Sequence record: MN067430
Length of the DNA stretch: 39,389 nucleotides
Strand: one strand, 5' to 3'
Source: Escherichia phage vB_EcoP-Ro103C3lw
Shown here: positions 1-39,389 of the stretch, one piece after another
Numbering within the stretch: position 1 is the stretch's first letter
Layout of the letters: each line of letters begins with the position of its first letter
Notes under the pieces: model-generated
What the model was told of the DNA's origin: nothing
The model's input: the letters and a program-made list of their open reading frames with translations, nothing else
Databases searched by the model: none
Translations under genes and position numbers: made by a program

Positions 1-191
1 TCTCACAGTTCAAGAACCTCAAGTCTCCCCCCATAGGGTCACTCTCAGTCAGACCAAAGGCCCTACCCCTAGACCGAAGGTCTAAACCTAAAGTCTTTGA
101 CCAGAAGTCAGGACCAGAAGTCTACCTCAAGGGCCTATATCTAGTGGTTGGGACCAGAGGTCGGGACTATATGTTGTGTCACTGAGTCTCT
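1..191. repeat. Left direct terminal repeat (DTR), 191 bp
   Basis: Bases 1..191 are identical to 39199..39389 by direct comparison; T7-like genomes carry terminal redundancy of this size (T7 160 bp). Confidence 0.95.
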
Positions 192-537
192 ATCTGTATT
201 AGCCTAGAGTCATCACCTCAGGTCATCACCTACAGTCTCACTACCTACAGTCAATCTATCAGTGATGTGACACCTACAGTCAAAGACCTACGGTCCGGTA
301 GACACTCAGATTGACCTATCGTTTATCAGAGACCTTAGGTCTAGTCTCACAGGTTATCGTTATAGTCTCTGTTTAGCAGTCAGGGAGACTATCAGTCTGA
401 CTAGGGTTATTGTTGGTGTCTACCAACTGGACTCTTATTATCCATAGTCAGGACTTAAAGTCCATCATCTGTAGTCGTTATTGGTCTACCTTATAGAGTC
501 ACTGGACTACTGTATAAATTAACATGATAAATAGTTG

Positions 538-566
538 TTGACGTTTAGTCTGACCTATGAGACTAT
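538..566 (+). promoter_or_regulatory. Host sigma70-type early promoter, T7 A1-like
   Basis: TTGACG (538..543), 17-nt spacer, GACTAT (561..566); spacer tttagtctgacctatga closely resembles the T7 A1 promoter spacer as recalled. Confidence 0.55.
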
Positions 567-36722: not shown

Positions 36723-38482
36723 GTCAAGACTTAGCGGCGCGTCAGGCGCTTATGACTGCCCGTATGAAGGCAGACTTCGTGTTCTTCCTGTTCGTCCTGT
36801 GGAAAGCTCTGTCCCTCCCGGTCCCGACTCGCTGTCAGATTGACATGGCGAAGAAACTATCGGCTGGGGACAACAGGCGTTTCATCCTACAGGCGTTCCG
36901 TGGTATCGGGAAGTCCTTCATTACGTGTGCCTTCGTGGTCTGGAAGCTGTGGAATAACCCGGACTTGAAGTTCATGATTGTGTCGGCCTCAAAGGAACGT
37001 GCTGACGCTAACTCCATCTTCATCAAGCGAATCATCGACCTGATGCCTCAGCTCCAAGAGTTGAAGCCTAAGCAGGGCCAGCGAGACGCTGTAATCAGCT
37101 TTGACGTAGGGCCAGCCAAGCCAGACCACTCACCTTCGGTTAAGTCCGTGGGTATCACTGGTCAGCTTACTGGTAGCCGTGCGGACATCCTGATTGCCGA
37201 TGACGTGGAGGTTCCGGGTAACTCAGCGACTCAGGCTGCGAGAGACCGACTGTCCGAGCTGGTAAAAGAGTTCGACGCAATCCTGAAGCCGGGCGGTACG
37301 GTTATCTATCTGGGTACTCCTCAGACCGAGATGACCTTGTATCGTCAGCTTGAGGGTCGCGGCTACTCTACGACTATCTGGCCTGCCCGGTATCCACGCG
37401 ATGAGAAGGACTGGAAGTCTTACGGAGACCGTCTGGCTCCGATGCTTCAGGCTGAGCTTGAGTCCGACCCTGAGGGCTACTACTGGCTCCCAACGGATGA
37501 GGTGCGCTTTGATGACGAGGACCTGAAGGAACGTGAGTTGTCCTACGGTAAGGCTGGCTTCGCTCTCCAGTTCATGCTCAACCCTAACCTAGGGGATGCT
37601 GAGAAGTACCCGCTGAAGCTCCGTGACCTTATCGTAGCGGACTTGGACCCTGAGTCCAGCCCTATGGTCTACCAGTGGCTCCCGAACCTCCAGAACAAGC
37701 GGGATGACGTTCCTAACGTGGGACTCATGGGTGACACCTACCACACGTATCAAACTGTAGGTTCTGCTTTCAGTTCGTACACCCAGAAGATTCTGGTCAT
37801 TGACCCTAGTGGTCGTGGTAAGGATGAGACGGGCTATGCGGTACTGTATCAGCTCAACGGCTACATCTTCGTGATGGAAGCTGGTGGTATGCGCGGTGGC
37901 TATGAGGACTCTACGCTGGAAGCTCTGGCGAAGATTGGGCGCAAGTGGAAGATTAACGAGTACGTCATTGAGGGTAACTTCGGTGATGGTATGTACCTCG
38001 AACTATTCAAGCCTGTAGCGGCCCGTATCCACCCGGCAGCAGTGACCGAGGTCAAGAGCAAGGGTCAGAAGGAACTACGCATCTGCGACGTTCTGGAGCC
38101 TATCATGGGGTCTCACCGACTCATCGTGAATGCTTCAACCATTGTGTCTGACTACCAGACAGCCTCTGATAAGGATGGCGTCCGTAACCCTATCTACTCT
38201 CTGTTCTACCAGATGACCCGTATCAGCCGTGAACGTGGAGCCTTGGCACACGATGACCGACTTGATGCGCTGGCTATCGGTGTACAGTTCTTCGTAGAGT
38301 CTATGGCTAAGGATGCCGTGAAGGGCCAGCGTGAAGTCACCGAGGAGTGGCTGGAGGAGCAGATGGAAGACCCGAAGAAAGGCTTTAAGTCCATCGAGAC
38401 GGACTACTGGGACAATGGGGTACGAGTCCAGTTCAATACAGATGATGACTTGGGCTTAGGGTCCTACGTTCAGTTCCACTAG
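36719..38482 (+). CDS. gp19: Terminase large subunit (T7 gp19 homolog)
   Basis: 587 aa; [120 protein letters not shown]; apparent TTG start after SD aaggaggtg. Confidence 0.96.
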
Positions 38483-38574
38483 CAGTTTTCATAAAGTACC
38501 GCTTTAGTTGCATGAATACGCACTATGTAAGTCGGTACATAACGCTCGTAACTCTATGTATTCCTTAGGAAAAT

Positions 38575-38597
38575 CTTATACCCTCACTATAGGAAAG
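38575..38597 (+). promoter_or_regulatory. Phage RNAP promoter near the right end (phiOR position)
   Basis: cttataccctcactataggaaag; +1 G at 38592. Confidence 0.75.
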
Positions 38598-38770
38598 ACC
38601 CCGGTTACTTATAGTAAAGACTCAATGAATAATCATATGCAGACTTTATGCAAGACCTTAGGAGGCAGACTCCTGAGTTCTTACCTAAGGTTCGCACCGA
38701 TGGAGAGGGTGATTGTAATCATCACACCCTCATAACTTAAGTAGACCCTAAGCGACAGGAGGTATGTAGC

Positions 38771-38929
38771 ATGGGTAAGACCAAAGCTGTTCTCAAAGCT
38801 CTGGCGACCAATAGAGCTACGTACAGGTTTCTTGCTGCTGTTCTACTTGCTGCTGGCGTTACTGCTGGAAGTCAGTGGGTCGGGTGGGTCGAGACTCTCG
38901 TATGTACTCTGGTGTCTGAGTGTCATTAA
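38771..38929 (+). CDS. Hypothetical small hydrophobic protein, 52 aa (gene 19.5 position)
   Basis: SD aggagg before ATG 38771; hydrophobic core LAAVLLAAGVTAG; not in the ORF track because it is under 60 aa. Confidence 0.45.
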   Translation: MGKTKAVLKALATNRATYRFLAAVLLAAGVTAGSQWVGWVETLVCTLVSECH

Positions 38930-39198
38930 TGCCATCATGGTAACAATCAACGAAAGGAGGTAGTATGATCGGTTACGGCGAAGGCTGAAGACCTAAGGTC
39001 AGTACGTGGATAAAGACTCACTCTACTGACCTTAGCTACTGTAGTCAAGGACTTTAGGTAACACCTTAAGAGAAGCTCACTTAGGGTCATCCTACTTACT
39101 GGTCTACCCTAGTGTCGCCTGACCTACGGTCCTTGACCTACAGTGGCTGTGGCCTACAGTAGGGACGATGAGTTTTGGACCAAAAGTTCGAGAGGCCA

Positions 39199-39389
39199 TC
39201 TCACAGTTCAAGAACCTCAAGTCTCCCCCCATAGGGTCACTCTCAGTCAGACCAAAGGCCCTACCCCTAGACCGAAGGTCTAAACCTAAAGTCTTTGACC
39301 AGAAGTCAGGACCAGAAGTCTACCTCAAGGGCCTATATCTAGTGGTTGGGACCAGAGGTCGGGACTATATGTTGTGTCACTGAGTCTCT
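39199..39389. repeat. Right direct terminal repeat (DTR), 191 bp
   Basis: Exact copy of 1..191. Confidence 0.95.

Follow-up and report, generated by a model that had tools for sequence, protein, structure and literature searches.

The short palindromic words that cluster near both ends of the genome of Escherichia phage vB_EcoP-Ro103C3lw (record MN067430; the window is the whole stretch of 39,389 nucleotides) are probably parts of the concatemer-junction architecture of the T7 group, that is, cis elements for duplication of the terminal repeat (TR), cutting and packaging, and not independent palindromic sites. The arrays in which they occur are very probably identical in kind with the SRL and SRR arrays of T7, and it is fairly likely that they serve DNA maturation in some way, a molecular role that we infer from sequence. 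The excision of terminally redundant genomes from concatemers and the accompanying duplication of the TR are still called poorly understood (PMC13595956). In T7 maturation requires duplication of the TR and a hairpin has been seen in vivo (PMC4281155), Pac consists of PacB, recognized by gp18, and PacC, cut by gp19 (PMC9860248), and both the pac site and the TR are needed by phagemids (PMC13236587).

Organization of the Genome Ends

The sequence represents a complete T7-like phage of the K1F type (Kayfunavirus), with other Kayfunaviruses as its closest relatives (88-93% identity). It carries an exact TR of 191 bp (1-191 = 39199-39389), and both the left end of the TR and the general layout agree with those of T7 and T3. 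No open reading frame of at least 25 aa occurs in 1-409, and Rfam returned zero matches in 38480-39389 and a single one at chance level (E = 0.88) in 1-900. The features of the two ends are as follows.

1-191, plus strand: left copy of the TR, an exact repeat starting TCTCACAGT, like T7 and T3
70-84, no strand: TR dyad TAGACC-GAA-GGTCTA with a 3-nt center, a conserved palindrome; right-hand copy at 39268-39282
192-198, plus strand: ATCTGTA after T, a class II-like pause/termination motif for phage RNA polymerase, directly at the TR border
199-345, plus strand: left short-repeat array, counterpart of SRL, a 10-base direct repeat with units related to ACCTAMAGTC
329-348, no strand: dyad GAGAC-N10-GTCTC, overlapping the palindrome AGACCTTAGGTCT (330-342)
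346-510, no strand: conserved non-coding block between the left array and the first host-type promoter
437-464, minus strand: leftward sigma-70-like promoter, putative counterpart of A0, by consensus match only
538-566, plus strand: first rightward host-type promoter, A1-like, TTGACG-17-GACTAT, from sequence and similarity to T7 A1 (TTGACT-17-GATACT)
38581-38593, plus strand: last phage-type promoter (CCCTCACTATAGG), counterpart of phiOR, from its promoter family and the annotation of phiOR at the equivalent place in T7 and T3
38990-39198, no strand: right short-repeat block, counterpart of SRR, the 209 bp left of the TR, starting exactly at GACCTAAGGTC
38993-39035, no strand: hairpin H1, formed by a perfect inverted repeat of 12 bp (CTAAGGTCAGTA / TACTGACCTTAG) around a loop of 19 nt; the apex lies 185 bp upstream of the TR
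39034-39148, no strand: H2, a long imperfect inverted repeat (39034-39059 with 39122-39148) with units in opposite orientation
39173-39185, no strand: palindrome TTTTGGACCAAAA, conserved in relatives, with 13 nt between its end and the downstream left-end cut site (39198/39199)
39199-39389, plus strand: right copy of the TR, an exact repeat of 1-191

The A1-like promoter at 538-566 is conserved (pi 0.05) and bounds the non-coding end region on the right; at 679-708 there is a second promoter, TTGACA-18-TAGTAT. The leftward promoter-like site reads TGGACT-16-GATAAT (9/12 consensus), with its -35 hexamer falling on the word GACTTAAAGTC, and in the relative EP1 it reads TTGACT-16-GATAAT (10/12 consensus); a leftward promoter, A0, is annotated near the left end in the T7 and T3 records. 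At the opposite end, transcripts from the promoter at 38581 traverse the right-hand block as well as the TR. Repeat units are also found inside the TR, where those on the plus strand start at 16, 41, 73, 86, 100, 113 and 153, and the single-stranded DNA fold-back of the TR has a z of +0.43.

Frequency and Orientation of the Short Words

The words enumerated in the original prediction are all present, displaced by 0-5 nt at most: AGACCGAAGGTCT at 71-83 and also at 39269-39281, GACCTACGGTC at 285-295 (previously placed at 287), GACCTTAGGTC at 331-341, GGACTTAAAGTCC at 451-463, GACCTAAGGTC at 38990-39000 (previously 38985), GACCTACGGTCC at 39121-39132, and CCTACAGT at 39137 and 39153 with further copies at 229, 244 and 273. 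Counted with patterns that were picked after the data had been seen, GACC-N3-GGTC occurs four times in 1-540 and twice in 38960-39198, vs 0.06 and 0.02 expected from the rate in the genome body, which amounts to six copies in 799 bp of ends vs four in the 38.4-kb body. The shuffle check that had been proposed for these motifs was run and places their frequency at the ends above chance, the end counts being reached by 0 of 2000 dinucleotide shuffles. The relaxed form GACY-N3-RGTC is found eight times in 1-540 (0.49 expected). A stronger signal than that of the palindromes is given by the one-strand word ACC-N3-RGTC, with 12 copies in 1-540 vs 0.46 expected (Poisson p 1e-13), the reverse complement of which is almost confined to units that are themselves palindromic. 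The same asymmetry is seen in the ratio of AGTC to GACT, 18:6 in 1-540 compared with 198:266 in the body (Fisher p 0.003).

Inverted repeats with 4-bp arms and a 3-nt spacer number four in 192-480, where about 1.5 are expected and 61 of 1000 shuffles reach the count, and eight in 38960-39198, where 1.2 are expected and none of 1000 shuffles does. The listed words are real and non-random, and a true excess of palindromes is present only in 346-510 and in the right-hand block. The concentration of palindromes that had been proposed for the genome ends holds for these two regions but not for 192-345, where single-stranded DNA has no fold-back excess (z = -0.36). Folded as one region, 192-510 is not significant (z = -0.88), and 346-510 stands out only after splitting. 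The proposal that similar words recur in promoter leaders was borne out in part: in the 11 phage-promoter leaders counted, GACY-N3-RGTC occurs three times (0.5 expected) and AGACY 15 times (2.35 expected), whereas GACC-N3-GGTC is absent.

The Left Short-Repeat Array

The units of the left array start at 202, 215, 228, 243, 272, 286, 314 and 332, all on the plus strand, at spacings mostly of 13-15 bp with modes at 13 and 15, and their logo is A-C-C-T-(A/C)-(A/C)-A-G-T-C. Tandem Repeats Finder reported nothing at the genome ends, owing to the divergence and irregular spacing of the units. The words at 285 and 331 are contained in this array, and each looks palindromic because a unit happens to start with G and to carry G at position 7. 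Across 16 related genomes the array comprises 67 plus-strand units, six minus-strand units and three palindromic ones, two of the latter in this genome; the palindrome at 285 is kept in 1/27 relatives and that at 331 in 2/16. The palindromic look of the left-array words is lineage-specific. Palindromy as a description of 199-345 was ruled out by the one-strand array, by poor conservation and by a z of about -0.4.

The array evolves rapidly, and 99 inserted alignment columns record the gain and loss of units, which in Salmonella phage ST1 has led to an expansion by about eight extra units. Fast evolution of this kind is also compatible with weak or no function.

The left array might be regarded as neutral and functionless, left behind by slippage during replication and by unequal recombination, with nothing of importance except the TR, the cut sites and the pause site, an explanation that is considered unlikely although it is the strongest of the alternatives. 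The overall diversity of 192-345 (pi 0.23) lies near the 4-fold neutral proxy (0.31), whole units come and go, and a large part of 346-510 is missing in the K1F-type subgroup, all of which would fit neutrality. Against it, the unit cores (pi 0.174) show roughly half the variability of the spacers (0.311), which are exactly at the neutral level, and arrays that agree in place, strand and period are retained in T7, T3 and Kayfunavirus despite a differing unit variant. In addition, each lineage has variants common to both sides of the TR, namely CCTACAG in this phage and K1F, CCTGTAG in T3, and CCTAAAG in T7 and T3.

Conserved Dyads and Hairpins

The dyad inside the TR occupies an equivalent position in 49 unique left ends of T7-, T3- and K1F-type phages, with arms that differ (GTCAACC/GGTTGAC, TTAACC/GGTTAA, TAGACC/GGTCTA, TGACC/GGTCA, GCCAACC/GGTTGGC and AGTCAACT/AGTTGACT) and with a center of TTC or GAA, both of which occur in both clades. 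Its positions are paired in 87.5% of cells, compared with 6-51% when the partners are slid, and 24 cells are changed on both sides; 0 of 500 shuffles attain such a result. As judged from the alignments, the symmetry of the TR dyad is kept by compensatory changes across the three types, with at least five such changes and repeated TTC/GAA flips of the center.

The dyad at 329-348 is Watson-Crick paired in 16/16 relatives, including one compensatory pair (TA in 14, AT in 2), while its inner palindrome AGACCTTAGGTCT is kept in only 2/16. The block at 346-510 combines low diversity (pi 0.10 vs a neutral proxy of 0.31) with a DNA fold z of -2.5 and carries small hairpin-type repeats at 366-388, 378-402 and 412-427 in addition to GGACTTAAAGTCC (451-463) and a second CATCTGTA at 466-473. 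The stem 366-369/385-388 is paired in 16/16 relatives and the stem 378-383/397-402 is invariant in the same number; in the dyad 412-427, the pair 415-424 is AT in eight relatives and GC in seven.

The right-hand block is nearly invariant (pi 0.08 vs 0.31 for the neutral proxy), with an indel-rich spacer directly upstream. This low diversity could reflect a recently shared module, and the third codon positions of the neighboring gene 19.5 are equally invariant (pi 0.055). The DNA of 38985-39200 folds with z = -3.99, and its counterparts in T7 and T3 with z = -2.4 and -2.9. Repeat units occur here in both orientations and therefore hairpins form. The arms of H1 are invariant in 29 sequences, where its loop has three unrelated versions, and the pairs of H2, which contains the GACCTACGGTCC and CCTACAGT words, are kept in the same 29 and almost never vary. 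Since neither H1 nor H2 shows any stem variation within Kayfunavirus, conservation of structure and of sequence are inseparable there, and a covariation test of the right-hand hairpins within this genus was uninformative. Across genera the position is kept: the apex of a hairpin lies at about -183 to -192 from the TR in almost every one of 41 unique junctions of T7-, T3- and K1F-type phages (three genera), the exceptions being a few indel-carrying junctions that place it outside this interval, at -162 to -206. The T7, T3 and K1F types have stems of unrelated sequence. At the distance from the TR at which TTTTGGACCAAAA is found, T7 and T3 have ACCATAAAAAT and ACCACAAAAAT.

One option of the original prediction was that a packaging or replication protein binds the short palindromes, which would make them separate sites of a dimeric protein, concentrated at both ends. 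This explanation, to which a lower probability is given than to neutrality of the array, draws on the enrichment of GACC-N3-GGTC at the ends, on the survival of the symmetry of the TR dyad through compensatory changes, on the retention of GACCTAAGGTC (38990) in 13/13 and of GACCTACGGTC (39121) in 11/13 relatives, and on the presence of six palindromic units among the 14 of this genome vs about four expected. The last excess is not significant (Fisher p 0.10), and the strong strand asymmetry, the flat fold-back of 192-345, the scarcity of palindromic units in the left array of the 16 genomes and the poor retention of the palindromes at 285 and 331 in relatives speak against such sites. Moreover, no single dimeric protein site is implied, the conserved dyads having arms unlike one another. 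As a functional unit, the short palindrome does not account for most of 192-480, though it may do so for the TR dyad, 329-348, 412-427 and 38993-39035; conservation in relatives divides along similar lines, failing for the palindromes at 285 and 331 and holding for the TR dyad, 329-348, 412-427 and the right-hand hairpins.

The Pause Motif and the Proposed Role of the Junction

At the right border of the TR, CTATCTGTA is invariant in 13 Kayfunavirus junctions, and its equivalents are ccctATCTGTTacag at 161 in T7 and CCCTATCTGTTAG at 232 in T3, both of which read ATCTGTT; the three phages are alike in having the motif at this border and on the transcribed strand. Plus-strand matches to HATCTGTW are only two in the whole genome, at 191 and 466. 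The class II motif required by T7 RNA polymerase consists of the seven bases ATCTGTT preceded by A, C or T (bioRxiv 10.64898/2026.02.12.705533), and T-ATCTGTA matches six of the seven strictly required bases and has an allowed preceding base, with the qualification that the requirement is that of the T7 polymerase and that the polymerase of this phage differs. The same source describes the junction pause site and calls the left non-coding region of T7 'unassigned'.

An involvement in concatemer-junction processing, which had been suggested as one of several options, fits the distribution of the words in two non-coding blocks that abut the TR and are positional counterparts of the junction sequences of T7 and T3. 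It also fits their neighbors, namely the class II-like pause motif at the TR border and the hairpin conserved in position. In a concatemer, the order at the junction would be right block, TR, left array. The phage RNA polymerase would start at the 38581 promoter, cross the junction and pause at ATCTGTA (192-198), and the junction would be recognized by terminase, with the small subunit gp18 and with gp19 on the prohead. T7-type packaging starts with the right end. The units on both sides of the TR may be many weak, equally oriented contacts that place an oligomeric terminase complex relative to the two cut sites, a possibility put forward tentatively. Somewhat more tentative is the idea that duplication of the TR proceeds through fold-back or strand displacement, a step served by the TR dyad together with the hairpin-forming right block. 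A composite version, in which the TR dyad and H1 (38993-39035) would have been selected for fold-back structure as the DNA substrates of TR duplication while the arrays of both sides co-evolve as a two-sided landing pad for terminase, is rather doubtful.

Two further alternatives concern proteins other than terminase. The units might serve host RNA polymerase on the first-entering DNA as promoter-like or decoy -35 elements, an improbable role for which several resemblances can be cited: AGTCA corresponds to TGACT and AGTCAA to TTGACT on the lower strand, GACTTAAAGTC is the -35 region of the leftward promoter-like site here and in relatives, T7 A1 itself reads TTGACTTAAAGTC, and in some contexts the pause sequence of the T7 junction works as a promoter in E. 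coli (bioRxiv 10.64898/2026.02.12.705533). However, most T7 units (CCTAAAGCC, CCTAAAGAC) are devoid of TGACT, the right-hand block enters the cell last, and a promoter scan of 192-345 gave no excess of complete promoters. The preferred sites of T7 primase include GGGTC and TGGTC. The idea that the recurring GTC marks primase recognition sites priming synthesis near the ends or in TR duplication was rejected as highly improbable, given that the ends show no enrichment of GGGTC or TGGTC, that GTGTC rests on one or two copies, that most units read AGTC and that T7 units mostly contain no GTC, even though GTC is 2.3 times denser on the plus strand of 1-540 than in the body and one published model of TR duplication has primase-initiated synthesis (PMC4281155).

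The comparison separates constrained elements, namely the unit cores, the TR dyad, the fixed-distance hairpin and the pause motif that borders the TR, from free ones, namely the spacers, the number of units and most of the apparent palindromes. This genome contributes no new kind of element; the separation yields concrete mutagenesis targets for plasmid-transduction assays and is also of use to those who design phagemids of the T7 type or synthetic phages.

Comparison With Known Systems

The arrays flanking the TR of T7 are taken here to be those named SRL and SRR (Dunn and Studier, 1983); a full-text literature search found no passage describing the SRL/SRR arrays or mapping pacB. As in T7, non-coding arrays adjoin the TR on both sides with more copies inside it, the period is about 13 bp (13 bp in the T7 array), the core is related (CCTAAAG in T7, CCTAMAG-TC here), the units of the TR and left array lie on the strand used in T7, early host promoters follow on the left, and phiOR and gene 19.5 precede on the right. 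Counts of CCT[ACT]NAG are comparable in this genome, T7, T3 and K1F. Same-strand copies are the rule in the TR and left array (67 plus vs 6 minus in 16 genomes), whereas the right-hand block has both orientations and so, unlike that of T7, long hairpins. Other differences from T7 are a longer unit that ends in GTC, CCTACAG as the favored variant, the lack of a phage promoter (phiOL) between the array and A1, and the conserved block at 346-510, which is specific to a Kayfunavirus subgroup.

The class II pause/termination site of the T7 concatemer junction was studied by Lyakhov (1997) and He (1998), as described in bioRxiv 10.64898/2026.02.12.705533. The motif of this phage resembles it in lying on the right TR border, in being preceded by T and in being kept in all relatives, and differs in reading ATCTGTA instead of ATCTGTT, in the different promoter recognized by the polymerase and in having a second copy at 466-473. 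The pacB and pacC sites of T3 and T7, which are cis-acting concatemer-junction sites recognized by gp18 and cut by gp19, are attributed to Chung and Hinkle (1990), Tsuchida (1996) and Fujisawa and Morita (1997) in PMC9860248. By analogy, natural candidates for sites of the pacB/pacC type are the conserved right block, the dyad within the TR and the sequences adjoining the two cut sites.

A hairpin-forming inverted repeat at a fixed distance upstream of the TR (184-190 bp) is common to T7, T3 and this phage. It may correspond to the hairpin seen in T7 in vivo. The hairpin end of T7 concatemers was reported by Chung, Nardone and Hinkle (1990), a work mentioned in PMC4281155.

Several short, similarly oriented sites adjoining a cut site are also a feature of the R sites of lambda cosB and of the pacL/pacR boxes of SPP1, and by analogy with them, short oriented units could contact the subunits of a ring-shaped oligomer. 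A 'nucleosome' model for reiterated sites of the terminase small subunit is reviewed in PMC9611059, where the wrapping of DNA around small-terminase rings is a contested model. Unlike lambda and SPP1, whose families and proteins are unrelated to those considered here, the sites of this phage flank both sides of a repeat that needs to be duplicated.

Setting of the Genome Ends

The window (39,389 bp) holds the whole linear genome of a T7-like phage. Both ends carry the same direct repeat without mismatch (the terminal repeat, TR; 1-191 = 39199-39389), and the genome starts with TCTCACAGT, as T7 and T3 likewise begin. Its closest database relatives are Kayfunaviruses (K1F-like Studiervirinae; 88-93% identity), including Citrobacter SH4, Cronobacter Dev2 and Enterobacter and Shigella phages; none of the matching records was identical. 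The left region studied here begins at the base directly after the left TR and is non-coding, as no ORF of at least 25 aa was found on either strand of 1-409. The phage promoter CCCTCACTRTAGG is present in 11 copies, every one rightward; the first is located at 2476, none occurs between the left array and the first host promoter, and phiOL, present in T7 (405) and T3 (366), has no counterpart in 192-540.

The junction (right block, TR and left region, the order found in a concatemer) was aligned for the window and 12 GenBank Kayfunaviruses, and the addition of IMG/VR contigs brought the unique right blocks to 29 and the unique left regions to 27. MBBL139 'Staphylococcus phage' (OR786095, 39,989 bp) and IME_EF3 'Enterococcus phage' (PQ520054, 7,785 bp) match the junction over its whole length at 88-90% and are probably mislabelled or contaminated records.

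The Left Repeat Array

Short palindromes concentrated near both genome ends were the subject of the original prediction. All the words it listed were found, some a few bases off, and their enrichment, checked against the genome body and dinucleotide shuffles, is strong: GACC-N3-GGTC has four copies in 1-540 (0.06 expected) and two in 38960-39198 (0.02 expected), and GACY-N3-RGTC has eight in 1-540 (0.49 expected). Generic short inverted repeats show a mild rise in 192-480 (4 vs ~1.5 expected, reached by 61/1000 shuffles) and a clear one in 38960-39198 (8 vs 1.2, reached by 0/1000).

The words on the left are nevertheless better described as units of one strand, mostly not conserved palindromes. 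Examined with their context, all RGTC words form a roughly periodic pattern on a single strand, successive units being mostly 13-15 bp apart. ACC-N3-RGTC occurs 12 times in 1-540 vs 0.46 expected (p ~1e-13, indicative only, like the other enrichment p-values, because patterns were picked after the fact), and AGTC:GACT is 18:6 there vs 198:266 in the body (p 0.003). Sites with up to two mismatches to ACCTACAGTC reach 15.4 per kb on the + strand of the ends vs 1.15 per kb in the body; those on the - strand of the ends (5.1 per kb) are all palindromic units or right-block units. A unit resembles a palindrome if G precedes it and its position 7 is G, a form found in 6/14 units with no significant excess (Fisher p 0.10). 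In 16 genomes with clear landmarks, 67 left-array units lie on the + strand, 6 on the - strand and 3 are palindromic, two of these in the window. The comparison with related termini gave a divided answer: the TR dyad and a few other dyads are kept, and the palindromes at 285 and 330-342 rarely are, the former being exclusive to the window (1/27 left regions; relatives carry ACCTACAGTC at the same place) and the latter, AGACCTTAGGTCT, retained in 2/16. Palindromic dimer sites are thus rejected for the array and possible for the few conserved dyads. The single-stranded DNA fold is no better than own shuffles for 192-345 (z = -0.36) or for the TR (z = +0.43).

The units could also be neutral slippage products, an explanation weakened by the persistence of arrays across genera and by the contrast in diversity between cores and spacers. 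Mean pairwise diversity is 0.23 in 192-345 vs 0.31 at gene 19 4-fold sites; within the array it amounts to 0.174 in unit cores and 0.311 in spacers, exactly the neutral level. With cores below neutral diversity and spacers at it, the units are therefore maintained, while spacers and copy number are free. The alignment of 192-345 contains 99 inserted columns from gain or loss of whole units. Close relatives differ in unit copy number; Salmonella phage ST1 (L009) carries about eight extra tandem CACTAACCATAAGT units at the array start (aligned to window 199-228), and phi1_146013 one additional ACCTACAGTCACCAG unit.

As a separate observation, the first ~50 nt after the 11 phage promoters (2476, 5978, 12901, 17194, 20017, 20993, 25463, 38581 and others) are rich in AGACT/AGACC (15 vs 2.35 expected) and GACT (14 vs 3.9); the AGTC words of the end arrays have the opposite orientation.

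Conserved Dyads and the Pause-Type Motif

The conserved elements of the left end are:

70-84: TR dyad TAGACC-GAA-GGTCTA, with a 3-nt centre
192-198, + strand: ATCTGTA, right after the last TR base; invariant in 13 relatives
329-348: dyad GAGAC..GTCTC, paired in 16/16, with one compensatory pair
366-388: small dyad, kept in the SFPH2/SH4-type subgroup
378-402: dyad AGTCAG..CTGACT, invariant
412-427: dyad GTTGG..CCAAC; 8 have AT and 7 have GC at pair 415-424
451-463: word GGACTTAAAGTCC, its core GACTTAAAGTC retained in most close relatives aligned

Among T7-, T3- and K1F-type phages, 49 unique left ends have a dyad with a 3-nt centre at the matching place of the TR. Its arms are GTCAACC/GGTTGAC in the T7 type, TTAACC/GGTTAA in the T3 type, and TAGACC/GGTCTA, TGACC/GGTCA and GACC/GGTC in the K1F type, with GCCAACC/GGTTGGC and AGTCAACT/AGTTGACT as further versions. 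In the MAFFT alignment 87.5% of cells pair, vs 6-51% with slid partners. Changes on both sides affect 24 cells, a number reached by 0/500 shuffles, although many trace to a single clade split and about five independent compensatory events are recognized by eye. Most genomes have TTC as the centre and some have the complementary GAA, both forms occurring in the T7 clade and in the Kayfunavirus clade (loci L004, L012, L049, L050, L058, L062, L070). Such a pattern resembles the outcome of repeated palindrome inversion, which is a mark of hairpin-mediated template switching.

Members of the SFPH2/SH4-type subgroup share the small dyads of the left region. Block 346-510 is conserved (pi 0.10) and its fold beats own shuffles (z = -2.5); the K1F-type subgroup lacks a large part of it, roughly window 384-434. 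GGACTTAAAGTCC overlaps the -35 region of a candidate leftward sigma-70-like promoter (TGGACT-16-GATAAT; TTGACT-16-GATAAT in the relative EP1), which matches the leftward A0 promoter of the T7 and T3 annotations.

At the place of ATCTGTA, T7 and T3 carry ATCTGTT, which serves in the concatemer junction as the class II pause/termination signal for T7 RNA polymerase (bioRxiv 10.64898/2026.02.12.705533). On the + strand of the whole genome HATCTGTW matches only twice, at 191 and 466. Both matches fall in the left non-coding region, and the one at 466-473 (CATCTGTAGTC) is conserved in 12/13 relatives.

The Right-Hand Block

The elements of the right end are:

38581, rightward: last phage promoter, counterpart of phiOR
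38771-38929: gene 19.5; the right-hand region lies between it and the right TR
38993-39004 with 39024-39035: perfect 12-bp inverted repeat (hairpin H1)
39034-39059 with 39122-39148: imperfect 26-bp inverted repeat made of oppositely oriented units
palindrome TTTTGGACCAAAA, which stops 13 nt short of the left-end cut site

The conserved stretch starts exactly at GACCTAAGGTC (38990) and extends to the TR (pi 0.08); the spacer just upstream is indel-rich in relatives. The block folds far better than own shuffles (z = -3.99), and those of T7 and T3 also fold above chance (z = -2.4 and -2.9). Its stems show zero variation within Kayfunavirus, and the H1 loop exists in three unrelated versions. Across genera, almost all of the 41 unique junctions have a hairpin apex ~183-192 bp upstream of the TR. 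The stem sequences of this hairpin show no relationship between the T7/T3 and K1F types, and those of T7 and T3 differ by compensatory changes.

Recent sharing of a module may account in part for how little the right end as a whole varies. In 13 Kayfunaviruses, gene 19.5 has pi 0.055 at third codon positions vs 0.044 at first and second, and vs 0.24 at gene 19 third positions, values that point either to constraint at the nucleotide level (a cis signal extending into the gene) or to recent exchange of a right-end module. A 7-codon mini-ORF (MIGYGEG*; 38965-38988) behind a strong Shine-Dalgarno, AGGAGGT, has its stop directly before the conserved block; at this spacer relatives have no ORF or longer unrelated small ORFs, that of K1F starting ATGGACGAAGAG.

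Possible Role at the Concatemer Junction

A second interpretation in the original prediction, concatemer-junction processing, points the right way according to the observed anatomy and constraint pattern of the end elements, and we infer that these are cis-acting at the junction. Transcription started at the last promoter would run across the junction and pause at the TR border, and the terminase would recognise the junction. In T7, Pac comprises PacB, the part that gp18 recognises, and PacC, where gp19 cuts (PMC9860248), and phagemids require the pac site and TR (PMC13236587). The equally oriented units on both TR sides may tentatively be viewed as multiple weak contacts that fix where an oligomeric complex sits with respect to both cut sites. 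Duplication of the TR is also required, whether through strand displacement or through primase-initiated synthesis, and a hairpin was observed in vivo (PMC4281155); that the TR dyad and the hairpin-forming right block would serve a fold-back or strand-displacement step of this duplication is a somewhat more doubtful proposal. A function of the units as host polymerase decoys is improbable, and one as primase sites, whose preferred forms are not enriched at the ends, highly so.

Comparison With T7 and T3

The T7 left non-coding stretch has been termed 'unassigned' (bioRxiv 10.64898/2026.02.12.705533). In T7, CCTAAAG units recur every 13 bp after the left TR, further copies occur inside the TR and ahead of the right TR, and the TR holds the dyad AAAGTCAACC-TTC-GGTTGACCTT; T3 has the same organisation. 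These T7 arrays are presumably SRL and SRR, reportedly described with the T7 sequence in 1983. Each lineage has its own unit variant, the same on both TR sides (CCTACAG in the window and K1F, CCTGTAG in T3, CCTAAAG in T7 and T3), which points to homogenisation across the junction or a common trans-acting factor. The parts most worth pursuing are the covariation of the TR dyad and the fixed-distance hairpin; judged by sequence comparison, the feature as a whole is the Kayfunavirus version of a long-known T7-group architecture.
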